DNA of 64,000 nt from the NCBI RefSeq assembly GCF_010671925.1, contig NZ_JAAHIH010000001.1:613053-677052 (forward strand). Reading direction: 5' to 3'. Below, piece after piece: positions 1,870 through 18,205 of the stretch (within the stretch, counting starts at the first letter, position 1; every line of letters starts with the position of its first letter). Under the pieces are notes generated by a model that worked only from the letters and a program-made list of their open reading frames with translations, made no database searches and was not told the DNA's origin. The position numbers and the translations under genes were made by a program. This DNA is from Moorena sp. SIOASIH. Its GTDB lineage: Bacteria > Cyanobacteriota > Cyanobacteriia > Cyanobacteriales > Coleofasciculaceae.

Positions 1870-4218
1870 ATGATTGACTTGCTTGCGATCGCACTCAGGG
1901 TGCTTTTAGGCTTATTTATTTTTGCGATTGGGCTAACCCTTGCTAAGTGGATTCCCAATCACCGGATTCGAGCTATTACCCAACCAAACCGTTGGTTTAG
2001 GCAAAGGGTTACTCTAGGACTGATGATCCTGACTAGTTTGATGATGCTGGGGTCAATTGTATTAGTCACTGATACTGTTAAGGTAAATTCAGGACAGGCT
2101 GAGGTAGTTAGCTCTCGGAAATACCAGAAGAACATCCGCCTCGGAACAACGAATGTAGCCATCGGAGGTGGTGGTTATGTCACTGGTGTTTACCTCCATC
2201 CACTGGAGAAAGACTTAGTTTATATTCGGACTGATGTTGGTGGCTTCTATCGTTGGGATGAGGGGAAGCAACGTTGGATTCCCCTGACAGAACACTTTCC
2301 CTTCTCTGAGAGAAACTATTATGGAGGAGAAGCACTAGCTGTTGATCCCAATGATCCAACTATTGTCTATATTGCGGCTGGAAAATATCCCTGGGCTGAA
2401 CCGGGAGCACTATTTAAATCTACCGATAAAGGACAAACTTGGACAAAGTTGAACCTAGATCTCAAGATGGGGGCTAACCACAAGAAAAAATGGCTAGGAG
2501 AGAGACTAGCCGTTGATCCGTTCAATTCCAATATTATCCTGTTCGGCTCTAGAGAAGATGGACTTTGGAAATCATCGGATGCTGGTGCTACCTGGCAAAA
2601 CGTGACCTCTTTTGCAGGTAAACCAGATAACAAAATTGGTATTACAGCGATTGTCTTTGATAAACAGGTACCGGGCTTAGTGTATGCTTCTCCCTATGGA
2701 GATGGCATCTACAAATCTACTGACTCTGGGGTCAGCTGGACTCAGGTAGCTGGTAGCCCAAAAACAGTCAATCGCATGGCTGTGGGAAACAATAATATCC
2801 TCTACGTCACCAGTACCAGTAATCCTGGAGTCCACAAGTATGCCAATGGTGTCTGGAAAACCATGAAACCACGGGGCGCTAATCGGATTTTTGGTCCGGT
2901 AAGTGTGAATCCTGCTAATCCTGAGGATATCTTAGTTGCCCTAAACCGCACACAAAAAACTAAATTCTACCGTTCCCTGGATGGCGGCGCTACCTGGAAA
3001 CAGCAGCAGTCTTTTGCTAACAATACTATTCCTTGGTGGCCGAAGAAGTTTTTTGCCAATCATATGGCAGGGATGGAATTTGACCCGAAAGTACCGGGAA
3101 GAGTGTGGTTTACGGATTGGTATGGTGTATGGCGGACAGATGATCTTAATGCTAATCCCGTTGTCTGGACTAACTATGCAGCAGGACACGAGGAAGTGGT
3201 TCCGTTCACTCTAGTTTCACCACCCCGTGGTCCGATACTGGTAAGTGGGGTGGCGGATGTAGATGGTTTCTACCATAACCAAGGATTAGATACTTACCCC
3301 TCTCAACGACTTGGTCTGGGGGAGCCCGGTAAGTCATTCCAGGAAACCTATAGTATTGCTTACTGTGAAACTAAACCCTTGCAGATGGTTCGGGTTGGTG
3401 GTAACCGCTGGAATTCAACCTACACTGGAGCTACTTCCAGCGATGGCGGTCTGACATGGCAACAGTTTGCCTCATTTCCAGACAATACGATGCCGATGCG
3501 GGTCGCTATGTCTGCTACTAACCCCAATCTATTTGTTGTGACAGTTAGTCAAGGTCAGCCACTGCGCACTACGGATCGAGGGGTGACCTGGCAAAAGGTT
3601 TCAGGATTACCCAATGGTCCGGGTGGTCCATGGAACTGGTCTCAATCTTTAGCGGCAGACCCTGTAGATGGCAACACGTTTTATTACTATGCCAAACGGA
3701 AAGTCTATCGTTCCAATGACGGTGGCTCATCTTTTCAAATTGTGAATGATTCACTGCGGAATGAAGGTTGGCATTCCCTGAAAACGGTGCCAGGGGTTAA
3801 GGGTGAAATTTGGCTGAGTCTAGACCGCAAGGGTTTCTATCGCTCTACCGATGGCGGTCAGTCATTCCTTAAGCTGCCTTCAGTAACCAGAGCTCACCTA
3901 TTTGCTTTTGGTAAAGCACCCCAGGGCAGCGACACTCCAGCACTATATATTTATGGCAATATTGATGGAAATGTTCCCAATCTCGGAAATGGGGTTAGAA
4001 ATCAGGAAGCTAGAGGAAGCTTAGCAAGCTCAGCCAAAAGCCGTGCCCAAGAACCAGGAATATTCCAGTCCCTTGACATGGGACGCACGTGGACACGGAT
4101 GGGCGATCGCTCCCGACCAATTGGCAATAGACCTACTGTGATGGAGGCGAGTAAGCAGGAGTTCGGACTTGTCTTTATTGGTACCAATGGTAGGGGAATA
4201 TACTACGGAACACAATAG
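1870..4218 (+). CDS. Membrane-anchored BNR/Asp-box repeat beta-propeller protein (GH74/sialidase-like)
   Basis: Two N-terminal hydrophobic helices. At least nine S-x-D-x-G-x-T-W Asp-box motifs: STDKGQTW, SSDAGATW, STDSGVSW, SLDGGATW, SSDGGLTW, TTDRGVTW, SNDGGSSF, STDGGQSF, SLDMGRTW. The ORF track starts at a TTG at 1867; the first ATG is 1870. Confidence 0.75.
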   Translation: MIDLLAIALRVLLGLFIFAIGLTLAKWIPNHRIRAITQPNRWFRQRVTLGLMILTSLMMLGSIVLVTDTVKVNSGQAEVVSSRKYQKNIRLGTTNVAIGGGGYVTGVYLHPLEKDLVYIRTDVGGFYRWDEGKQRWIPLTEHFPFSERNYYGGEALAVDPNDPTIVYIAAGKYPWAEPGALFKSTDKGQTWTKLNLDLKMGANHKKKWLGERLAVDPFNSNIILFGSREDGLWKSSDAGATWQNVTSFAGKPDNKIGITAIVFDKQVPGLVYASPYGDGIYKSTDSGVSWTQVAGSPKTVNRMAVGNNNILYVTSTSNPGVHKYANGVWKTMKPRGANRIFGPVSVNPANPEDILVALNRTQKTKFYRSLDGGATWKQQQSFANNTIPWWPKKFFANHMAGMEFDPKVPGRVWFTDWYGVWRTDDLNANPVVWTNYAAGHEEVVPFTLVSPPRGPILVSGVADVDGFYHNQGLDTYPSQRLGLGEPGKSFQETYSIAYCETKPLQMVRVGGNRWNSTYTGATSSDGGLTWQQFASFPDNTMPMRVAMSATNPNLFVVTVSQGQPLRTTDRGVTWQKVSGLPNGPGGPWNWSQSLAADPVDGNTFYYYAKRKVYRSNDGGSSFQIVNDSLRNEGWHSLKTVPGVKGEIWLSLDRKGFYRSTDGGQSFLKLPSVTRAHLFAFGKAPQGSDTPALYIYGNIDGNVPNLGNGVRNQEARGSLASSAKSRAQEPGIFQSLDMGRTWTRMGDRSRPIGNRPTVMEASKQEFGLVFIGTNGRGIYYGTQ

Positions 4219-4225
4219 GGTTAAT

Positions 4226-4427
4226 GTAAGCATTCAGCCGTCAGCCGTTGGCCGTAGGCCAAGCTACTTGAGGTGCCGTCAGCTTATTTTTCAAGTACCG
4301 TGCGCTATGGGCATAAACTGTTGCCGTAGCGTGACCACAGGCCTTTAGCCGTTCCCGTAGCGTGCGCGTAGCGCATTAGCCTTTAGCTGATACGCGACAC
4401 GCTGATAGCTGATAGCTGAATGCTTAG
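4226..4427. repeat. MITE-like element bounded by inverted GTAAGCATTCAGC ... GCTGAATGCTTAG termini
   Basis: Terminal inverted repeats at 4226-4238 and 4415-4427. Internal modules CAGCCGT heptamers, GCTACTTGAGGTGC, GCGTAGCGTGCGCGTAGCGC and GCTGATA heptamers recur in similar elements across the window. Confidence 0.5.
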
Positions 4428-4776
4428 GGGTTAATTTTGATTAATTGTTTAAGATTTTTATAAAATTTTCCTTGTAATTTGGGTAATCCTTATTGAATAG
4501 GGAATACACTAAATTACTGACTTGTTTCGTGTTAATCAGGGAATCAAACTATGGCACTCCTGCAATTTTTAATCATTAGCGCCATTTGTATGGTGTTAAT
4601 CAAGTTTGTTGCCTCTTGGTTTGGGTATGGCAACATACCGATACTGAATAAATTAGTGACTATTATTCTCAGCGTCTTCGTGACCTTTGAAATTATTCAG
4701 CTGGTGCAAGCTATAATTATCAAATTTGGTTGAGGGCTGTTCGCCCTTGGCGTTCCCGTAGGGTCGGTTGAGGGAG

Positions 4777-4846
4777 GGTTGAAGGTTGAAGGTTGAAGGT
4801 TGAAGGTTGAAGGTTGAAGGTTGAAGGTTGAAGGTTGAAGGTTGAC
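4777..4846. repeat. Heptamer tandem repeat (GGTTGAA)n, about 10 copies
   Basis: Direct reading of a perfect tandem heptamer array. Confidence 0.9.
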
Positions 4847-4946
4847 CTTCAATAAGATGCGATCGCTTAAGTTATTAATAAGTTACTAAAGTTAAAAGTT
4901 GACTAGAGCGTTTCTCCTACTTATGAGGTAAAGTCAATTTTCTTAC

Positions 4947-5062
4947 CCCTACTCCCTACTCCCTACTCCCTACTCCCTACTCCCTACTCCCTACTCCCTA
5001 CTCCCTACTCCCTACTCCCTACTCCCTACTCCCTACTCCCTACTCCCTACTCCCTACTCCCT
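4947..5062. repeat. Heptamer tandem repeat (CTACTCC)n, about 16 copies
   Basis: Direct reading of a perfect tandem heptamer array. Confidence 0.9.
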
Positions 5063-5085
5063 GTATTACGCAATAGTTTCTAGCA

Positions 5086-7679
5086 GTGTCTGGAAAATCA
5101 AATAGGCTGAAGTAGCACGGGCGACCGAATATTGGCGCACCTGGGAGCGAGAGGAGTAAGACCCTCTCCCCCCCTAGGATTCAGGAGGGTTCCCACTCGA
5201 AGGTGCAAAAGACGATGGACATCTCGGAAAGAAAAATCTAGGATTATCCCGAAGTCTTTTGTATCAGAGCTAGAGAGAAAGTAGGTTATAACCGAACCAC
5301 CGAATAGGAAATAACCGAACAGGGAAAGAACGACAAGGTTGAAGGACATGAATCGTTGTTTAAAGGCACCGTCATCAGTGATAACCCCGCTAAACTCGGT
5401 GATGGGGTTATAGGCTCCAGGATTACATTGCGTGTTAGATGTAATCGAATCCCATGAAGGACCCGGTGTAGAGACGGCAACCTTTAGTTCGCAACTCACA
5501 GGCGCGTAAACGGGTAAGCCGAGATTGAGTCCATATTGTCTGGTCGATAAATATGGTAGCCAAACCGCAAGGAAAGGTATAACTCTCAGTCCGGTAAAAG
5601 TCTGAACCAAGCAAAGGCCGACACCTGAAAAGGAACGGGAATACATAACCGGTCGGATAGAGGGAAGTCCCTCGCTCGAAAGAGCGCTGAATTTCAGAGC
5701 TGATTCCGAGCCAAGAGGAAACGTACTTAATTAACTTAAAGTGTACATGGAAAAGATAGAACCTATATCGCAAGATACGGGTATCGTAACTGAACACACC
5801 ACTGAATGGCACTCCATAAATTGGAAGAAAGCCTACAGACAGGTGAGGAAATTAAGACAACGTATTTTCAAAGCGACACGTGAAGGAAACTGGAAAAAGG
5901 TCAATAAACTCCAAAGATTGATGCTTAGGAGTTACAGCAATGTCCAGATATCCGTCAAAACAGCCACCCAACAAAATAAAGGAAAGAGAACGGCAGGGGT
6001 TGATCAAGAAAAATGCCTGAATCCTCAAGAAAGAGGACAGATGGTAGACAGATTAATCAACCTCAAATCATGGGCAGCTAAACCCACCAAACGCATCTAC
6101 ATACCCAAGGCCAACGGCAAACAAAGACCCTTAGGGATACCAAGTATCACCGACAGATGTCTACAAGCCATAGTCAAAAACACACTAGAACCTGCCTGGG
6201 AAGCCCAGTTTGAAGGAACCTCATACGGGTTCAGACCAGGCAGAAGTGCCCATGATGCCCGACAACGCATCTTCTCAAATATTAAAGGGGAAAAGAATAG
6301 GAAATGGTGGATAGTGGAAGCGGACATAAAAGGATGCTTCGACAATATAGCCCACCAACCACTTCTGGAATCCATCGGAAACTTTCCAGCAAGAAAGCAA
6401 ATTAAAGACTGGTTAAAGGCAGGGTACGTAGATAAAAATACGTTCCACCCGACAGAATCAGGCACCCCACAGGGGGGAATAATAAGCCCACTTCTGGCCA
6501 ACATTGCTTTACACGGACTGGAAACAGAGTTAGGAATAACCTATAAAAGGGTTAAAAGAAACAACAGGGCAAGTTACTGGGAAAATAAATCCAATAGAAC
6601 AATAGCTCGCTTTGCGGATGACTTTGTAATCATAACAGAGAGCAAAGAAGATGCTGTGAACGCTAAGGAAATCACGAAGAAGTGGTTATCCAAAAGAGGG
6701 TTAGAACTATCGGAAGAAAAAAACCAAGATAACTCACCTAACAGAAGGATTCGATTTCCTAGGATGGAACTTCAGGAAATATAAAACAACCGGAAAAAAG
6801 TCAGGGTACATTACACTAATTAAACCCTCCAAGAAAAGCCTGAAGAACATCAAGAAGGAGATAAAAATAGCCATGGCTCAACTAAAGGGTGCATCAGAAG
6901 ATGTGGTGATAGCCAAGTTACAACCTCTCATAAGAGGATGGACCAACTATCACAACGGGACAGTGGCTAAAGAAACCTTCAACAACCTAAATGAATACGT
7001 AAGATGGAAATTAGTAAGATGGTGCCTAAGAAGATACCCAAAAAATAAAAGTTGGGAATGGATTAAAGCCAAACACTTCGGCAAATTCTGCCCTGGAAGG
7101 GAAGATAACCATGTGTTCGGAAGGAAAGACAATTATCTGGACAAAGCACAATGGACAAACATCACCAGGCATGTGCTAGTAACCCACAACTACTCTAAGG
7201 ACGACCCTGAACTCCAAGAATATTGGAAGAAAAGGCAAGAAAAAAATGGGAAAAAAGCAGCAGAAGGAGCACTATCCAAAGGTAGGAATAAGATAGCCTT
7301 AAGGCAAAAATACACCTGCCCATACTGCGGACAACCACTTGGAGAATATAATAATGTTCATCTACACCACATTATCCCTAGGGAAAATGGGGGAAAAGAT
7401 GAAGCAGGGAACCTAGTATATGTCCACGAAGATTGTCACAGGACCATCCACGCCTTGGGAGCCAGCAATCCTGAGATACAGGAAAAACTGTATCGAGCGA
7501 TAAAAACCCGTCCAAGGAACCGGAAGAAAAGCCAAAAGGTACAAACCCGGTTATCCAAAGACTAAAAGCTGGATGAAAAGATAACGTGTATAAAGGAATT
7601 GGTTGCGCCGTGTGCTTGGTAACTTGCTCGCACGGTGCTTAGGGGGCGAAGAGGGAGCAATCCCTCCGACCTACCCAAT
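5086..7679 (+). mobile_element. Group II intron, about 2.6 kb, with its intron-encoded protein in domain IV
   Basis: An RT-X-HNH ORF is flanked by non-coding RNA-like sequence. A domain V-like hairpin GCGCCGTGTGC-TTGGTAACTTGC-TCGCACGGTGC lies at 7604-7638. A domain VI-like segment ends in ..CCAAT at 7679. The proposed 5' end GTGTC at 5086 and the 3' end are inferred from reconstructing the interrupted dhaL reading frame: joining 5085|7680 restores ..GHQDPVLETIA-stop on the minus strand. Boundaries are within a few nt. Confidence 0.6.
5741..7565 (+). pseudogene. Group II intron-encoded reverse transcriptase/maturase/HNH endonuclease, split by a +1 frameshift in an A7 run (6717-6723)
   Basis: ORF 5741-6784 carries RT domains 0-7 (RPLGIPSITDRCLQA, FRPGRSAHDA, FADDFVII). 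ORF 6873-7565 carries the X/maturase motif RGWTNYH and an HNH domain (CPYCGQ..HHIIPRENGG..HEDCH). Deleting one A from GAAGAAAAAAACC restores the canonical ..LSEEKTKITHLTEGFDFLGWNFRKY.. junction. This is either a genuine pseudogene or a homopolymer sequencing error. Confidence 0.8.
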
Positions 7680-8253
7680 CAGGGTCTTGATGTCCAGCAC
7701 TGCGCTCCCCTAAATAACTGGCTCGTCCTTTCTTGGCCACCAACGGAATAGTATTTTTCATCCCTTCTTCTGCGGCGTTGACGGCCTGTTGCAAGGCTGC
7801 TAGCATACTGTCTCCTTTATCTACAGCTTGTGCGAAGGCATTGGCTGCGGGTGATAGAGCATCTAACATGGTCTTATCTCCCAAGTTGGCTTTGCCTCGC
7901 TGGACGACTCCCTCCACTGCTGCTTGGAATAGTTTGACCATATCCTCTTTTGTCAGTTCTTGCTTTCCTGCTACTGCTGCACTTGAGCGCAAGAACAGGG
8001 TGCCATAAAGTGGTCCACTGGCACCTCCGACACTGGAAATTAGAGTCATGCTGACGGTTTTGAGAATACTGCCAATGTCTTTATCTGCCACTTTAGGAAG
8101 CTCAGTGATCACCTTTTGAAAGCCACGATTCATATTGATACCGTGGTCAGCATCACCAATAGCAGCATCAAGTTCGGTTAGATAGTCCTTGTTTTGTTCT
8201 AGTACAGTAGCGACTGCTTGTAACCACTGTAGAATTTGATGTTTAGTTACCAT
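7639..8253 (-). CDS. dhaL: Dihydroxyacetone kinase ADP-binding subunit DhaL; its C-terminus is replaced by intron-derived sequence
   Basis: ELDAAIGDADHGINMNRG, GGASGPLYGT and KKGRASYLGERSAGHQDPD motifs. The last 12 codons (..DWVGRRDCSLFAP) are read from the group II intron 3' end rather than from dhaL. Confidence 0.8.
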   Translation of the reverse strand: MVTKHQILQWLQAVATVLEQNKDYLTELDAAIGDADHGINMNRGFQKVITELPKVADKDIGSILKTVSMTLISSVGGASGPLYGTLFLRSSAAVAGKQELTKEDMVKLFQAAVEGVVQRGKANLGDKTMLDALSPAANAFAQAVDKGDSMLAALQQAVNAAEEGMKNTIPLVAKKGRASYLGERSAGHQDPDWVGRRDCSLFAP

Positions 8254-8497: not shown

Positions 8498-8566
8498 GCA
8501 ATTAGCAATTAGCAATTAGCAATTAGCTAAGCTTTACGATACTGATGCTCCCAGATATCATATTAA

Positions 8567-9640
8567 TCATAATCCCCAACGCAGGGCTGGTGTCTTGACT
8601 GGTGCATCCCAGAATTTAATTAGCTCATCGTTCATCTTGAGTAGGGTAATCGAGCAGCCTTGCATTTCTAGAGACGTAATATAAGGACCAATCAGACTAC
8701 GCACGATTTCCAGTCCCTTTTGTTCACAGATTTGGGCTAATTTCCGATACACAATGTATAGTTCCGACAGGGGAGTACCACCCATGCTATTCACGAATGC
8801 TAGAATGCGATCGCTTTTCTGAAAAGGCGGGTCAGTTATTTCCAACTCTGTCCATTCTGCTTTATCTTCATCCCACTCTCGCAATGTGCGGCTATAGGCA
8901 GAATCTTCAATAATCGATAGCGCTAGCATTTCAGTTATCTCATCCGCTGATTTTAGGGACATTCGTTTTCTTCCCGGTTCTCCGTGAATGCCAATCCCAA
9001 ATTCTATTTCCGCTTCCCCCAAGTCAAACATGGGACTACCTTTAGCAGGAGGGGTGCAGGATGTCAAGGCCATACCCATGCTGCGTCCATTACCATTAAC
9101 CTGGCGACAGAGATTAGCCAGTTGTTTGAGGTCATAACCGGCAGCAGCGGCAGCGCCACAGATTTTCTCGGCTAATAATGTCGTCCCTACCCCCCGCCTG
9201 CCTTGAGTATAGAGGCTATCTTTAACCGCTACATCATCATCAATTAGGATATTGAGGACTCGGATGCCTTCTGAGATAGCTAATTCCGCAGCTAACTCAA
9301 AATTCATGACGTCACCGCTATAGTTTTTGACAATATTAAGAACCCCCGCGCCACTGTTGACTATTTTGGCAGCTTCTAGCATTTGGTCGGGAGTGGGAGA
9401 GGTAAACACTTCACCGGGACAGGCGGCATCTAACATTCCCGCACCCACAAAGCCCCCGTGCAAGGGTTCATGACCACTACCACCACCGGAAATAATCGCT
9501 ACTTTGTTTGATATGGGAGCATCAGCGCGGTAGATCAAGGGGGGGTCAAGATTAATTTTGAGCAGGTCAGGATGGGCTACAGCCATGCCTTCTAGGCTTT
9601 CTCTGACAACATTATCGGGATGATTGATTAATTTTTTCAT
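8567..9640 (-). CDS. dhaK: Dihydroxyacetone kinase DHA-binding subunit DhaK
   Basis: 357 aa. Motifs [30 protein letters not shown] and PGRKRMSL match the Dak1/DhaK family. Upstream of dhaL on the same strand. Confidence 0.85.
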
Positions 9641-10455: not shown

Positions 10456-11964
10456 ATGACCATAACCAAACCAATGTCATCTCAACGATATGCAGAATTT
10501 GACCAGGTCTTCCAGTTATTTGATGCCAATGGTGATGGATTCATCAGTCGTCAGGAGATCATCGATGCTCTAGAGATTCTGGGACAAGGCATTTCCCTTC
10601 AAGACCGAAGTAATCTGTTAAATCTGCTCAACACAGATGATGTTGTAACACGGGATGCCTTTATGGAGTGGATGGTAAACCGCCAAGATCTCGATATTAG
10701 GGCTGATCTGCGACAGGTGTTTGAACTGATTGATGTTGATGGTAGTGGCAAGTTATCGATTGAGGAGTTCACCCAGATTATCCGGTGCTTCAACACCACC
10801 GTAACTGATTCAGAAATTGCTGCCTTAGTGAGAAAAGCTGATTTAAATGGAGATGGTGAAATTGATTTTGAAGAGTTTATTGTCACTCAGACTTACGAAT
10901 CGGCTCTGAAAATTTCGATCGCAGGGTTACGCAGTTTCAAAAAGATTTTACTTCAGTACCAGAAAGTCGCAAAGTTTTCCTCCATTGCCCTGATTGAAGT
11001 TGATTCTGAATTAGGAGCGGGAACGCGCGGTCAATCCATGGGAACTGCTGCTTTGAGAGAAGCTGCCATCCAAAAACAGGCAGCACGGATGCATGCCGAG
11101 AATGGTGTTTTGAGTCTGGATAGTTTACAAGTACAAACCGAAAATTGGGCAGATGCTCTGGGACACAAACATCAATACGCCAAGTATATTCACAAGCTAT
11201 ATCAGGTGCTGAGCCGAACTACAGATGTAGTCGCCCAAACCCTACAGGAGGGGCTGTTTCCAGTGGTACTCGGTGGGGATCATTCAACGGCAGCAGGGAC
11301 AATCGCCGGAATCAAAAAAGCCTTTCCGAATCATCGCCTGGGAGTGGTTTGGATTGATGCCCATGCCGATATTCACTCCCCCTATACGACTCCATCGGGA
11401 AATATGCATGGGATGCCTCTGGCGATGGCGACTGCTACTGATAATCTGGCCAAGCAAATCAATGATCTTGACTCAGACACCGTAAAACTGTGGAACTTGT
11501 GCCAACGATTGGGGCTGGCAGATGGCGCGAATTTTAGCATTGAGGATTTGGTTTATATTGCGGTACGAGATACGGAAGAGGCAGAAGACCATTTGATTGA
11601 AACACACCAGATCCTAAACATGACCAGTGAGCACGTTCGTACCTTGGGTGCGGATGTCGTTGCCCAACGGTGTTTAGAGAAGCTAGAAGGGGTGGATCTG
11701 ATTTACGTTACCTTCGACGTGGACAGTATGGACTCGACAATTTGTATGGGAACGGGAACCCCGGCTCCAAATGGGATTTTTGTCAAGGAAGCCTGTCTGC
11801 TCAACGAAACTTTGGTTAAAGATCCACGGGTGTGTTGTTGGGAAATCTGTGAAATTAATCCTCTGCTTGATACCCTCAACACCATGGTGGAAAACTCTTT
11901 GGGCATTTTTGAAACCGTAGTGGATGCCATTGCCAATCGCCTAGAAGTCACAGGGAAAGCATAA
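10456..11964 (+). CDS. EF-hand calcium-binding domain fused to an arginase-family ureohydrolase
   Basis: N-terminal EF loops DANGDGFISRQE, DVDGSGKLSIEE and DLNGDGEIDFEE. The C-terminal part aligns with arginase: VVLGGDHSTAAG, VVWIDAHADIHSPYTTPSGNMHGMPLA (compare [26 protein letters not shown]), VYIAVRDTEE, IYVTFDVDSMD..GTGTP, EICEINPLLD. Confidence 0.8.
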   Translation: MTITKPMSSQRYAEFDQVFQLFDANGDGFISRQEIIDALEILGQGISLQDRSNLLNLLNTDDVVTRDAFMEWMVNRQDLDIRADLRQVFELIDVDGSGKLSIEEFTQIIRCFNTTVTDSEIAALVRKADLNGDGEIDFEEFIVTQTYESALKISIAGLRSFKKILLQYQKVAKFSSIALIEVDSELGAGTRGQSMGTAALREAAIQKQAARMHAENGVLSLDSLQVQTENWADALGHKHQYAKYIHKLYQVLSRTTDVVAQTLQEGLFPVVLGGDHSTAAGTIAGIKKAFPNHRLGVVWIDAHADIHSPYTTPSGNMHGMPLAMATATDNLAKQINDLDSDTVKLWNLCQRLGLADGANFSIEDLVYIAVRDTEEAEDHLIETHQILNMTSEHVRTLGADVVAQRCLEKLEGVDLIYVTFDVDSMDSTICMGTGTPAPNGIFVKEACLLNETLVKDPRVCCWEICEINPLLDTLNTMVENSLGIFETVVDAIANRLEVTGKA

Positions 11965-11979
11965 GACAAATGTTCAACT

Positions 11980-13635
11980 ATGATTAAACCTTCTATTCCC
12001 CCGGCTACCCCTGAACCCTCACCGCTCCATGAACTAATTGCCAAGCTAGTACTGTTCAAACCCCATCGGACTAAGCTATTTCCCTGGTTGCTACCTGGTG
12101 CAGGCACATTGCCATCTCTCAATCAACGGTTAGGCCATCAACCCCTGTTGGATTTTTTGAATTACAACTTGCGTGGCATTGGCCAGGTAATCTTTGTGAA
12201 CAACCCCCTGAGTGGGTTATTGATTCTGGTAGCACTGTTTATTCAGTCACCTTGGGTAGGGGTGATGAGTGTAGTGGGTGTGGTGGCTTCAACCGTAACT
12301 GCCATCTTCCTTGATCTTAATCGCGATAGTCTTCGCAACGGTATTTTTGGCTATAACGGGATTTTAGTCGGAGCAGCACTTGCTACTTTTGGGGCATCCG
12401 GGAATGGTAACTGGAATCCCCTCTGGATCATCGCTGCTATCATCTTTTCTGCTCTTACCACTCTGCTGATCAAGACCGTCGGAGTCTGGTTTGCCAGCAA
12501 GCTGAAATTTCCCCCCCTAACCTTGCCCTTTATTGCGGCAACCCTGTTATTTCTGGTGATTGCGGTCTGGATGCCTCAACCAGTTTATACCTTGGGGAGC
12601 ACGCCGACTCCCCCACCTGTCTTGGAACCGATCAATTGGTGGCAACTTGCCACCTCCGTGCCGATTGGGTTTGGACAGGTGTTTTTAATGGATAAGTTTG
12701 TGGCTGGGGTGCTTGTCCTGGCCGCAGTTGCCTGGTGTACACCGATTGGGGCAGCTGTCGGATTATTGGGGGGAGTATTCGGTACCCTGGCGGCGCTGAT
12801 CACAGGTGTCGGTGCTGACACCATCTCGGCTGGATTGTGCAGTTACAACGCCATCTTGACAGCAATGGCTATTTCTGGAGTATTTTTTGCCCCCAACCTG
12901 CGCAGCTTACTTGCGGGCATTTTTTTGGCTTTTTTTTCAACTCTCCTGGGGGGCATTTTAAGCCACATCTTCAGCCTACTTAACTTGCCCATCCTGACCT
13001 TACCCTTCTGTTTGGTCACAATCCTAGGTTTCCGGTATTTGCAGCAGACACTGCCATCATTAGTCCCAGTTCCCCTACATGCGATCGCTAGCCCAGAAGA
13101 ACATTACCAGCGTTACCTGGTTGCCAAAGATATCCTTACCACATTTCGCCGTCAGATGCAAGGGGCAATGGCCGGTACACCCCACCTATATTTATTTGAG
13201 TCTGCCTCCGCCTCAACCAAAGGAAATATCGAATATCTCTTTAATGCCATTGATACCGATTTCAGTAACACCCTTTCGGTTAACGAGCTAGCAGAACACC
13301 TGCGGCAAGTCAAACGAGGTATGTCTCAACAGGAATTGGATTATTTGTTTCGTTGTATGGATATTGATGGCAGTGGTGAAATTGATCTGGCTGAGTTTGG
13401 TGAATTGTTATTGCGTCAGCAACGATTGATGTCTAACTATAACGACTTCATTACTTACTTTATACCAATTGATGCTAATCAGGATGATGCTATCAGTATC
13501 GATGAAATGAATTTAGCTTTTGCCAGTGTAGGTGAATCACCCCTTAGTGTACATGAAGTGAACTTTTTATATGGTCGCATGAATGGAGAAGCTATCACCT
13601 GGAATCGCTTTATTGAAGTTTTATTGGTGACTTGA
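11980..13635 (+). CDS. Urea transporter (UT family) fused to a C-terminal multi-EF-hand domain
   Basis: The UT signature LRGIGQVIFVNNPLSGLLIL is followed by about 8 predicted TM helices. The C-terminal ~190 aa carries EF loops DTDFSNTLSVNE, DIDGSGEIDLAE and DANQDDAISIDE. Confidence 0.75.
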   Translation: MIKPSIPPATPEPSPLHELIAKLVLFKPHRTKLFPWLLPGAGTLPSLNQRLGHQPLLDFLNYNLRGIGQVIFVNNPLSGLLILVALFIQSPWVGVMSVVGVVASTVTAIFLDLNRDSLRNGIFGYNGILVGAALATFGASGNGNWNPLWIIAAIIFSALTTLLIKTVGVWFASKLKFPPLTLPFIAATLLFLVIAVWMPQPVYTLGSTPTPPPVLEPINWWQLATSVPIGFGQVFLMDKFVAGVLVLAAVAWCTPIGAAVGLLGGVFGTLAALITGVGADTISAGLCSYNAILTAMAISGVFFAPNLRSLLAGIFLAFFSTLLGGILSHIFSLLNLPILTLPFCLVTILGFRYLQQTLPSLVPVPLHAIASPEEHYQRYLVAKDILTTFRRQMQGAMAGTPHLYLFESASASTKGNIEYLFNAIDTDFSNTLSVNELAEHLRQVKRGMSQQELDYLFRCMDIDGSGEIDLAEFGELLLRQQRLMSNYNDFITYFIPIDANQDDAISIDEMNLAFASVGESPLSVHEVNFLYGRMNGEAITWNRFIEVLLVT

Positions 13636-15263: not shown

Positions 15264-18110
15264 TCAAACCGACCTGTCGAGTTGGTTGATAATATACTCT
15301 TTAACCCCAAAAGCCGAATCTAGCTGCAACGCCTCACCAGCAAGCATCTCGGCCTGGTTGATACTCAACTGTGTAATAACTGAAATCACAGTAGCGATCG
15401 CAGGTGGATTCACACTCAACTCATCCACCCCCAATCCTAATAAAATCGGTATCCCTACTGGATTCGATGCCAACTGACCACAGACACTAACTGGAATCCC
15501 TGCTTGATGAGCAACAGTTACCGTTTGCTGAATCATCCGTAGCACAGCTGGTTCAAGGGCATCAGCCAGCTTCGCCACCTTGGGATTAGTACGGTCAGCG
15601 GCCATCACATATTGACTCAAATCATTGGTACCAATGCTGAAAAAGTCCACTTCAGCGGCTAACTGATCAGCCATGGTTACTGCTGCCGGGACTTCTACCA
15701 TAATCCCCACTGGCATCTGTTCATTAAAACGATGCCCTTCTTGGCGCAACTCGGCTTTAGCCTCTGCTAGGATTTCCTTAGCAGCCCGTACCTCTTGTAC
15801 TGAAGAAACCATAGGAAACATCACTTTAATGTTGTGTCCATAACTCCCTCGTAGAATCGCCCGCAGTTGGATTTTGAGCATCTCTGGACAATCCAAACTC
15901 TGACGAATTCCCCGCCATCCTAGGAAAGGGTTAGGCTCTGGGGTGTGCGGAGCAGAGGAAGCATCAGAAGACGCTAGATTCAGGAAGGGAATGGGCTTGT
16001 CACCGCCAATATCCAAAGTACGAATCGTTAGGGGATGGGTACCCATAATTTGCGCAATGGCTTGATAGGTTGCCAACTGCTCTTCCTCGCTCGGAATAGT
16101 TAAGCGTTCCAGATAAAGAAACTCAGTCCTAAGTAAACCGACCCCTTGAGCACCACAATCGAGAGCCAATTTAGCATCAGCCTCTCCCAAAACATTTGCC
16201 ATCAAGGGAATTTTGTGTCCATCATGAGTAATTACCTCCCTAGGTAATTCATCCTTACTGTTGCTCTGTAGCTGTAATTCTTGCTTTTGTTCCTCAGAAG
16301 GCTCTACCCAAATTTCACCGGTTGTCCCATCCAGTGCCAACTCCGTACCAGCTGGCAACGACAACAGATCCTGACCAACACCAACCACCATCGGTATACC
16401 GAGCATATTGGCGATTAGGGCACTATGGGCTGTAGCACTGCCCCTAGCGCAACAGATACCTAGGACTTGGATCGGATTTAGTTGTGCGACCTCAGAGGGA
16501 GTTAAATCAGCAGCAACCAGAATACCAGGCTCAGTCACATCTATTTGACTTACTAAGTTTAGTTGGTTTTGCCCCCCTGCCCCCCAATTTTTCGGTGCGA
16601 CCCGTGGCGAATTTAATTCGCCAACGGAAAGCGCACCGGGAGGGGTAATCATGTCAAAGTCCCCCGCCCCCCTAACCCCCCAATTCTGGGGGGAATTAGC
16701 GGATGCTTTGCTTTTTGACATTGGGGGATTTAGGGGGCTCTTGCGTAAGTCCTGATCTAGACAGCTTTCTTTCCTATTCGTGAGTAATCGCAACACTCGC
16801 CAGCCGACATCGATCACATCATTTCCGCGAGCTTGCATGTAGGAGTCTTCCAGAGTTTGGTAATTTGCTACGGTTTCATCGATCACAGTTTTCCAAGCCG
16901 CCCCTGCCCATAGATGCTGGTCAACTATAATCTGATAAGCTCTATTAACTAGGGCTGGATCCTCTAAATAGAGCAAGTGAGCCTGAAAAATATCTGCCTG
17001 ATCGTTAGTAACAGTATTGATCAGGTGTTCAAGTTGCTGTTGTGCTGTTTTAATAGCAAGTTGTAGGGTTTCCCACTCCCCTTGAGGATTATCTGTTTGC
17101 TCTTCAATAATTTCTGGACGTTTGGGTTGGTAGACAATAACCGCTCCGATAGCAATACCAGCAGCAGCGGGAATTCCAACTAACCTATCAAGTGTGACAG
17201 ATGACGAGTGAAGGGATTGGTTACTGGGAGGGTTAGAGTCTTGGTTGATGTCTTCTTTTGGTTTATCTAGTTTTTCCCCAAAATTGTTATGGACTAGCTG
17301 CTGCAACGCGATCAAGGCTAATTCCGCATCTTCTCCTACTGCATAGATGACTATTTTATCTCCCTGTTGGATACCTAAAAGCATCACATTATTAATGCTT
17401 TTTCCATTAACTATATTGCTAGTTTTGGTTAGGTTTTGTAGGGTTATTTCACAGTTAAACCGATTAGCTGTAGTAACAAATTGGGCAGCAGGACGAGCAT
17501 GAATTCCCTGTTGATTCTGGACAGTAAGATGGATTTCTTTGGTTGTAGTTCCGTAGGGTGCGTTAGGGACGGGCTCACCCTGATTTTCCCCTTCGTAGCC
17601 AGGGTTGGAACAGCCAGTCCCACCCACGGGCAAGATGCCCGTTCCACCCACGGGCAAGATGCCCGTTCCACCCACGGGCAAGATGCCCGTTCCACCCACC
17701 GGGTCTGATAACTGAGAGGCTTTAGCGGTTAAGGCTGATCTAGCTTCAGCAATCACTTGGTCGATATCACCACCAGCCGCAGCTTGGACAACCGCTGCGA
17801 TCGCACCTTCCACTAATGGCGCTTCGCACAATCTTACCTTGGGTTTCTGCTCTTCATCCAGAAACTCCAGTGCCATTTCCGCACTGAGCACGGCACTGCC
17901 TAAATCCATTAATACCACTACCCCAGCATCGGAGTAAACCGACTCAATGGCAGCTTGGACTTGCAGCACATCGGTACCAAAGGGATTTTCCGGGTCATCG
18001 ATACCAGCTGCGATCGCAATCGGTACGGATGTCTGAACCATCTGTTGGGCTAATTCCTTGACCCCAGCCGCTAGCTTAGCACTGTGGGAGATAATCACAA
18101 TTCCAATCAT
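15264..18110 (-). CDS. dhaM: Multidomain phosphotransferase DhaM/PtsP-like: EIIA(Man)-like domain, then a hairpin-repeat linker, then HPr, then Enzyme I
   Basis: MIGIVIISHSAKLAAG is the EIIA-Man/DhaM N-domain. GIHARPAAQFV is the HPr His site. GSATAHSALIANMLGIPMVVG, GGLLRTEFLY, IRTLDIGGDK and FSIGTNDLSQY are Enzyme I/PEP-utilising motifs. The ORF track starts at 18197 inside a (GGCAAGA)n array; the conserved start MIGIV is at 18110. Confidence 0.85.
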   Translation of the reverse strand: MIGIVIISHSAKLAAGVKELAQQMVQTSVPIAIAAGIDDPENPFGTDVLQVQAAIESVYSDAGVVVLMDLGSAVLSAEMALEFLDEEQKPKVRLCEAPLVEGAIAAVVQAAAGGDIDQVIAEARSALTAKASQLSDPVGGTGILPVGGTGILPVGGTGILPVGGTGCSNPGYEGENQGEPVPNAPYGTTTKEIHLTVQNQQGIHARPAAQFVTTANRFNCEITLQNLTKTSNIVNGKSINNVMLLGIQQGDKIVIYAVGEDAELALIALQQLVHNNFGEKLDKPKEDINQDSNPPSNQSLHSSSVTLDRLVGIPAAAGIAIGAVIVYQPKRPEIIEEQTDNPQGEWETLQLAIKTAQQQLEHLINTVTNDQADIFQAHLLYLEDPALVNRAYQIIVDQHLWAGAAWKTVIDETVANYQTLEDSYMQARGNDVIDVGWRVLRLLTNRKESCLDQDLRKSPLNPPMSKSKASANSPQNWGVRGAGDFDMITPPGALSVGELNSPRVAPKNWGAGGQNQLNLVSQIDVTEPGILVAADLTPSEVAQLNPIQVLGICCARGSATAHSALIANMLGIPMVVGVGQDLLSLPAGTELALDGTTGEIWVEPSEEQKQELQLQSNSKDELPREVITHDGHKIPLMANVLGEADAKLALDCGAQGVGLLRTEFLYLERLTIPSEEEQLATYQAIAQIMGTHPLTIRTLDIGGDKPIPFLNLASSDASSAPHTPEPNPFLGWRGIRQSLDCPEMLKIQLRAILRGSYGHNIKVMFPMVSSVQEVRAAKEILAEAKAELRQEGHRFNEQMPVGIMVEVPAAVTMADQLAAEVDFFSIGTNDLSQYVMAADRTNPKVAKLADALEPAVLRMIQQTVTVAHQAGIPVSVCGQLASNPVGIPILLGLGVDELSVNPPAIATVISVITQLSINQAEMLAGEALQLDSAFGVKEYIINQLDRSV
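17618..17701. repeat. 24-nt tandem repeat (CCCACGGGCAAGATGCCCGTTCCA, about 3.5 copies) inside dhaM, encoding (GGTGILPV)n
   Basis: Direct reading. The unit contains the hairpin AACGGGCAAGATGCCCGTT, which also occurs at 35770-35830, 19390-19420 and within the 61-bp satellite at 22895-23290. Confidence 0.85.
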
Positions 18111-18149
18111 AAGGTATATAAACACCTTTGTATCTGGGTTGTGAACATA

Positions 18150-18205
18150 CTCCCAAAGGCAAGAGGCAAGAGGCAAGAGGCAAGAGGCAAGAGGCAAGAG
18201 GCAAA
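18150..18205. repeat. Heptamer repeat (GGCAAGA)6 in the dhaM 5' leader
   Basis: Direct reading; duplicated at 19555-19585. Confidence 0.85.

Follow-up and report, generated by a model that had tools for sequence, protein, structure and literature searches.

An antisense group II intron of chloroplast-like type in dhaL of Moorena sp. SIOASIH, with a frameshift in the intron's own protein gene

We analysed a stretch of 64,000 nucleotides (nt) of the Moorena sp. SIOASIH genome, referred to below as the window, whose positions are used as coordinates throughout. In this window a mobile, chloroplast-like (IIB) group II intron appears to have inserted recently, in antisense orientation, into dhaL, the gene for the ADP-binding subunit of the DhaK-DhaL-DhaM dihydroxyacetone kinase. 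The intron is not spliceable from the dhaL transcript, DhaL is most likely inactive, and this copy of the intron is shifted out of frame at a run of seven A (A7) in its own protein gene. We put the probability of this reading at about 0.9. It refines an earlier interpretation of the same DNA, called here the original prediction.

Boundaries of the intron

The intron-free dhaL locus of Moorena sp. SIO3I6 (L001) reads ...gaccctggtgctacttcagcctatttgattttccagacactgctagaaac..., that is gaccctg/gtgctacttc, where the slash marks the insertion point, as in the other sequences below. On the minus strand of the window, ...gaccctg stops at 7680 and gtgctacttcagcc... picks up again at 5118. When 7680 is joined to 5118 the empty allele is recovered to the base, with zero duplication and zero deletion; the intron is therefore 5119-7679. 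The elements of the disrupted gene are as follows.

5119..7679, + strand: complete group II intron, 2,561 nt, 5'-GGGCGACCG ... CCUACCCAAU-3' (empty allele and end-to-end blastn)
7680..8253, - strand: dhaL 5' part, codons 1-191 and the first base of Gly192 (Dak2 profile positions 1-160 of 174)
7639..7679, - strand: intron-antisense tail read by dhaL, (D)WVGRRDCSLFAP and stop (translation)
5066..5118, - strand: displaced dhaL 3' fragment, (G), 16 residues and TAA (minus strand matches L001)

Close copies of the intron were gathered by exact-protein look-ups, and the comparison set consisted of the window intron with L002, L003, L006, L008, L009, L010 and L011 (eight copies, seven independent sites). 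L006, the twin of the window intron, comes from Moorena producens assembly ERZ25878582 (L006:3373-5932). A scan of genome contigs with the repaired intron protein as query yielded two distant relatives only (38-39%). The blastn alignments ran from intron position 1 to 2561 with L002 and L003 (76% identity) and with L006 (99.88%). Six copies (L002, L003, L006, L008, L009 and L011) begin with GGGCGACCGA right where similarity of the flanks stops, L010 begins with GGGCCACCGA, and all seven end in ...CCYAYCCRAT.

The original prediction had the 3' boundary, between 7679 and 7680, at the same place as ours, and the Rfam covariance model ends exactly at 7679. Its 5' boundary lay between 5085 and 5086, 33 nt too far upstream, and was anchored on GTGTC instead of the actual start GGGCG. 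In that version the intron would be 5086-7679, native DhaL would end in ...GHQDPVLETIA, and only the last few codons would be affected. The reading frame does close across 5085 and 7680, because 33 nt make 11 whole codons, and GTGTC is loosely similar to GUGYG. Nevertheless, the comparison with the empty site refutes these boundaries: 5086-5118 is not intron, it is 33 nt of dhaL codons collinear with the intron-free gene. In addition, the seven relatives start at the GGGCGACCGA or GGGCCACCGA block, with flanks that diverge directly upstream, and a DPVLETIA ending was found in no DhaL homologue compared. We therefore give the earlier boundaries practically no chance of being correct. The corrected junction is matched exactly by the uninterrupted allele of Moorena sp. 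SIO3I6, and the C-terminal end that it restores, in a native DhaL of 208 amino acids (aa), is identical to that of M. producens DhaL P0255.

The ribozyme

The presence of a group II intron on the + strand, antisense to dhaL, had been proposed before and was borne out by an Rfam match to RF00029 (Intron_gpII, domains V/VI) at 7603-7679, together with the protein domains described below. The match scored 45.8 bits, above the gathering score of 40, and spanned model positions 1 to 77. Domains V and VI had been said to look intact, and the minimum-free-energy fold of 7603-7679 agrees: both hairpins are formed, UA 7672-7673 is unpaired, and the z-score is -3.9.

7605..7638, + strand: domain V, catalytic hairpin with CGC triad (RF00029 alignment)
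7642..7676, + strand: domain VI; the bulged A7673, 7th base from the 3' end, is the branch-point candidate (Rfam alignment, fold)

Among solved structures, the homologue nearest to the intron protein is the T.el4h maturase-reverse transcriptase 6ME0 (E 3.9e-123), and on this basis the element is placed among the chloroplast-like (IIB) group II introns. Its first 620 nt are conserved end to end with the relatives (mean column identity 86%), and the predicted architecture of domains I-III comes from this homology rather than from a model.

The 5' part of the intron also contains a 182-aa open reading frame (ORF) antisense within domains I-III, at 5098-5646 on the minus strand. In L006 the corresponding stretch (3247-3900) is annotated as a hypothetical gene, and L002 and L008 likewise have hypothetical minus-strand ORFs within the intron's 5' part or close to it. 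This ORF is probably spurious and propagates with the intron. A promoter and terminator scan of 4300-5800 gave nothing over shuffle expectation.

Disruption of dhaL

The present dhaL ORF (7639-8253, minus strand) has a Dak2 domain, encodes 204 aa and ends in DWVGRRDCSLFAP-stop. Its product is 97% identical to the nearest DhaL, that of Moorena sp. SIO3I6 (P0001), over the matched 93% of the query, up to ...GHQDP. The insertion lies 17 codons before the native stop, within the conserved DPGA motif, and not in the very last codons as first thought. The last 17 residues are swapped for 13 residues from the antisense strand of the intron, and the conserved codons for these 17 residues are displaced by 2.56 kb.

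After ...GHQDP, the segment GATSxYLI..LL is kept in all 14 other Moorena DhaL proteins and in more distant cyanobacterial ones, and it aligns with the solved E. coli DhaL 2BTD through GHQDPGATS...QML. The intron-derived tail is absent from the same 14 proteins, and the Dak2 domain of the present product is incomplete, the Pfam match ending at profile position 160 of 174.

Since the intron is on the + strand and dhaL on the minus strand, the intron complement carried by the dhaL mRNA cannot splice, as had been correctly anticipated. Translation of dhaL would run 13 codons into this complement and stop, with loss of the 17 conserved residues. The description of DhaL as permanently tail-modified thus holds as regards permanence and understates the damage, as the alignment with 2BTD indicates. 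The gene is probably inactivated. An antisense group II intron insertion is known as a non-conditional disruption and is the principle of targetron knockouts (PMC3898094).

Pairing of the intron with its target

Base pairing between the exon-binding sites (EBS) of the intron and the intron-binding sites (IBS) of the flanking DNA was examined at the corrected insertion point.

5106..5118, + strand: 5' exon target, IBS2 GCTGAAG at 5106-5112 and IBS1 TAGCAC at 5113-5118, pairing with EBS2 and EBS1
5373..5379, + strand: EBS2 candidate CAUCAGU, 6 of 7 pairs with positions -13 to -7 (IBS2)
5432..5437, + strand: EBS1 GUGUUA, in the loop of a hairpin (stem 5420-5428 / 5439-5446), paired with IBS1 at 6 of 6 positions, including one G-U
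5471, + strand: EBS3 G, pairing with the first 3'-exon base C7680 (alignment complementarity)

The intron pairs with its own site through EBS1, EBS2 and EBS3 at 13 of 14 positions, compared to 6 of 14 when the same EBS are set against the sites of other introns; the IBS/EBS pairing that the original prediction had named as a check is thus present. The EBS1 columns follow the 5' exon of each copy, with 4 to 6 of 6 pairs over the seven independent sites. For EBS2, the columns of the relatives pair with their own -13 to -7 at 7 of 7 positions in L003, 6 of 7 in L010 and 5 of 7 in L008. Scoring at fixed columns fails for L002 and L009; in L009 the failure is due to a one-column alignment shift, and AATATAT pairs 7 of 7 with -13 to -7 (by eye). 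Another EBS2 candidate, TCAGTC at 5586, was rejected, being downstream of EBS1, whereas the upstream columns 5373-5379 covary in relatives. As to EBS3, its column is Watson-Crick complementary to +1 in all eight copies (G-C five times, A-T once, T-A twice) in an almost invariant context, CGGYGUA_AGACG, and in a three-intron alignment it was the only domain I column with a complementary pattern.

The twin L006 has EBS identical to those of the window intron. Its site, GTTAGGCTGAGGTAGCTC/C, and the window site, AATAGGCTGAAGTAGCAC/C, agree at 15 of 17 target positions (-16 to -9, -7 to -3, -1 and +1). Both look-alike sites were therefore chosen by one and the same RNA. No second copy of the L006 target was found within the window, allowing up to 3 mismatches. 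Such pairing and look-alike sites are the hallmark of an insertion that proceeds by reverse splicing, the enzymology being taken from what is known of the family. A chloroplast-like IIB intron with an endonuclease domain would have entered the chromosome between 5118 and 5119, its target TAGGCTGAAGTAGCAC/C being recognised through pairing with EBS2, EBS1 and EBS3. The likely route would be retrohoming, in which the intron RNA is reverse-spliced into the + strand and then copied by target-primed reverse transcription. The insertion is judged recent because only two substitutions in 2.56 kb separate the intron from its twin, and because it is absent from the other Moorena strains examined.

The intron-encoded protein

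Pfam searches identified RVT_N and RVT_1 on a + strand ORF at 5741-6784, and GIIM and HNH on a second + strand ORF at 6873-7565. The break between the two halves was attributed from the start to a single extra A, and with one A taken out of the A7 run (6717-6723) the two indeed join into a single ORF of 605 aa, homologous throughout.

5747..6784, + strand: N-terminal ORF (RVT_N, RVT_1, FADD active-site motif), with premature stop after the frameshift (Pfam; identical to WP_293090997.1, P0153)
6717..6723, + strand: A7 homopolymer, in-frame state A6 (L006 and five relatives)
6723..7565, + strand: C-terminal part in the +1 frame, with the end of the reverse transcriptase (RT), maturase/GIIM and HNH endonuclease (repaired translation, Pfam)

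Over its full length, L006 differs from the window intron by this A and by two substitutions, at 5281 and 6005; the window has the base of the relatives at 5281 and a derived base at 6005. The twin has A6 and encodes an intact 605-aa RT-maturase-HNH protein, P0243 (WP_424103660.1). Five more distant relatives have SE(E/Q)KT(K/R)I(T/S)HL in a single frame, and none of their A runs exceeds A6.

Going from A6 to A7 would split the RT fingers and palm from the maturase and HNH domains. If the A7 is real, the window copy would have ceased to produce its own factor for splicing and mobility, would have lost its autonomy, and would be starting to decay. No intact copy at 90% identity or more is annotated in the Moorena sp. 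SIOASIH genome, where more distant intron proteins (61-66% identity) are annotated.

ORFs 5747-6784, 6873-7565, 7639-8253 and 8567-9640 match RefSeq/GenBank proteins of Moorena sp. SIOASIH exactly, on a contig of 1.717 Mb. In RefSeq the 204-aa product appears as a normal DhaL, and each half of the intron ORF as a protein of its own. These two split proteins come from the same assembly, so they are no independent evidence for A7.

Weighing of alternative explanations

The genome is a binned hybrid HiSeq 4000 and PacBio RS metaSPAdes assembly from a non-axenic culture (PMC7825088), and two alternatives derive from this. The A7 may be a homopolymer error of the assembly, in which case the intron would have A6, an intact 605-aa protein and full autonomy as an active retroelement, dhaL being disrupted all the same. 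PacBio RS long reads went into the hybrid run, long-read consensus is most likely used in repeated elements, and the difference from the twin amounts to two substitutions and that single A. Contigs of hybrid SPAdes assemblies, on the other hand, derive mainly from the Illumina graph, and Illumina rarely miscounts a run of 6-7 nt; moreover, the other genes examined in the window (dhaK, a 783-aa ORF and a 977-aa dhaM-like ORF) are unbroken. On balance we favour a real, recent mutation and hold an assembly error to be the less likely, though serious, alternative. Far less probable is a programmed recoding site, by transcriptional slippage or +1 ribosomal frameshift, that would limit production of the full-length protein. 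Runs of at least 7 A are known to act as slippage sites in some bacterial mobile elements, and the out-of-frame part is otherwise undamaged, but in the 99.9% identical twin and five more distant relatives a single frame codes for the protein, the runs being A6 or interrupted. The A7 is thus not a conserved recoding feature, since the shifted state is unique to the window copy among the introns compared. The other assembly-based alternative is a chimera, in which an intron repeat was wrongly threaded into a dhaL that the organism carries uninterrupted. A binned metagenomic hybrid assembly and the existence of related introns in Moorena genomes leave some room for it. A random misjoin would nevertheless not place the junctions exactly at the first and last nucleotides of the intron, nor have flanking dhaL bases that pair with its EBS at 13 of 14 positions, and no other 90%-identical copy is annotated in the genome. 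We regard a chimera as highly improbable.

Besides the possible error at A7, a few points weigh against our main reading. The Rfam models for domains I-IV gave no match over 4950-7750, even at E up to 1; a long non-coding RNA match on the heptamer repeats, from the permissive search of this segment, was discarded as spurious. RNAfold of the isolated EBS1 hairpin pairs part of EBS1. A DhaL without its last helix could keep some activity. Finally, the intron starts with GGGCG instead of the canonical GUGYG: G1, G3, C4 and G5 match the consensus, position 2 is G instead of U, and the 3' end is ...AAU. Group II introns have natural variants of the GUGYG start, such as GAGCG in yeast aI5gamma, and end in AY. 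Because six of the seven other copies (all except L010, with GGGCC) have GGGCG, this start is a trait of the lineage and not damage, and a disabling mutation was ruled out.

Sites of related introns

The host genes of the related introns are listed below; L002 and L009 are intergenic.

L006:5924-7213 and L003:3886-5166: tnpB host genes, intron antisense
L011:4346-5491: iscB host gene, intron antisense at the 3' end
L008:4352-5089: phosphoribosyltransferase host gene, intron antisense 33 codons before the stop
L010:4365-5720: tnpB gene, intron just upstream in sense orientation

L006 and L003 lie antisense at the extreme 3' end of IS605-family tnpB genes that are 49% identical, at nearly the same codon. 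With dhaL, five of the seven independent sites are antisense within the last ~35 codons of a gene (tnpB twice, iscB, phosphoribosyltransferase, dhaL), and a sixth is just upstream of tnpB. Host ORFs end inside the intron complement, for example with ...YWVGQRDYSLFAP* in L003, an ending similar to the DhaL tail of the window. It is conceivable, although we think it rather doubtful, that this lineage prefers the antisense strand near gene 3' ends, especially of IS200/IS605-type tnpB and iscB, as a parasite of mobile elements. The dhaL site would then be a mimic, hit because 15 of 17 target positions resemble a tnpB/iscB-type site. A sample of seven sites is too small for a rule on intron siting.

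A third genome with this element is that of Moorena sp. SIO2I5, where L007:1360-1964 is a 5'-truncated fragment, 99.2% identical over intron positions 1696-2300 and adjoining an HTH_23/HTH_32 gene.

The dha genes and their surroundings

Two further components of the kinase are encoded in the window.

8567..9640, - strand: dhaK (Dak1), intact upstream partner, 357 aa as in other Moorena strains (Pfam Dak1, E 8.8e-125)
15264..18197, - strand: DhaM-like EIIA(Man)-HPr-enzyme I fusion, 977 aa (Pfam EIIA-man, PTS-HPr, PEP-utilisers_N, PEP-utilizers, PEP-utilizers_C)

The DhaM-like protein is the presumed phosphoryl donor for DhaL. Judged from its genes, Moorena sp. SIOASIH has, apart from dhaL, a full phosphoenolpyruvate (PEP)-dependent dihydroxyacetone kinase system.

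Perfect heptanucleotide tandem arrays flank dhaL: GGTTGAA x9.9 (4777-4845), CCCTACT x16.6 (4947-5062) and GCAATTA x4.3 (8498-8527). In several other Moorena strains the dhaL ORF runs into a GGGAGTA array and its ends vary (...ETGNTGSRE vs ...ETIA or ...ETIG). Between dhaK and the DhaM-like gene, EF-hand domains and a domain of the arginase family are joined in one + strand ORF of 502 aa (10456-11964); Moorena sp. SIO3I6 has two gene calls there (L001:905-2413), for a 119-aa EF-hand protein and a 378-aa arginase. The 502-aa ORF is followed by one for a urea transporter that carries EF-hands at its C-terminus (11980-13635). At the start of the window, a HEARO RNA (RF02033, 117 bits; 203-461, + strand) is directly followed by a 424-aa ORF with RRXRR and HNH domains (487-1761, + strand); together they apparently make a complete IscB-type RNA-guided nuclease with its guide-RNA scaffold.

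Comparison with known systems and significance

The intron resembles T.el4h (TeI4h) of Thermosynechococcus (6ME0), also cyanobacterial, in the order of its protein domains (RT with N-terminal extension, maturase X, DNA-binding and HNH endonuclease) and in its IIB-type target recognition with a separate EBS3 in domain I. It differs from it by the 5' end of the Moorena lineage, GGGCG and not GUGYG, by the frameshifted ORF of the window copy, and by its antisense position inside a metabolic gene. The nearest relative is the M. producens twin, with 99.88% nucleotide identity, identical EBS and 15 of 17 target positions in common. Unlike the window copy, it has A6 and an intact protein, and its host gene, entered antisense at the 3' end, is an IS605-family tnpB and not dhaL. 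Like the 'non-conditional' knockouts made with targetrons on the antisense strand (Ll.LtrB, TeI3c/4c; PMC3898094), the dhaL insertion is an unspliceable and permanent disruption; it is natural and due to a native IIB intron, whereas targetrons are engineered IIA or IIB introns.

This is an ordinary mobile-element insertion, and the current understanding of group II introns is unchanged by it. For the intron family, the empty and filled dhaL alleles and the twin at a second site define a target rule, TAGGCTGARGTAGCWC/C, for a young IIB intron with a GGGCG start. For the organism, a dhaL pseudogene split by a group II intron is the more fitting annotation of the locus, and Moorena sp. SIOASIH has probably lost PEP-dependent dihydroxyacetone kinase activity.

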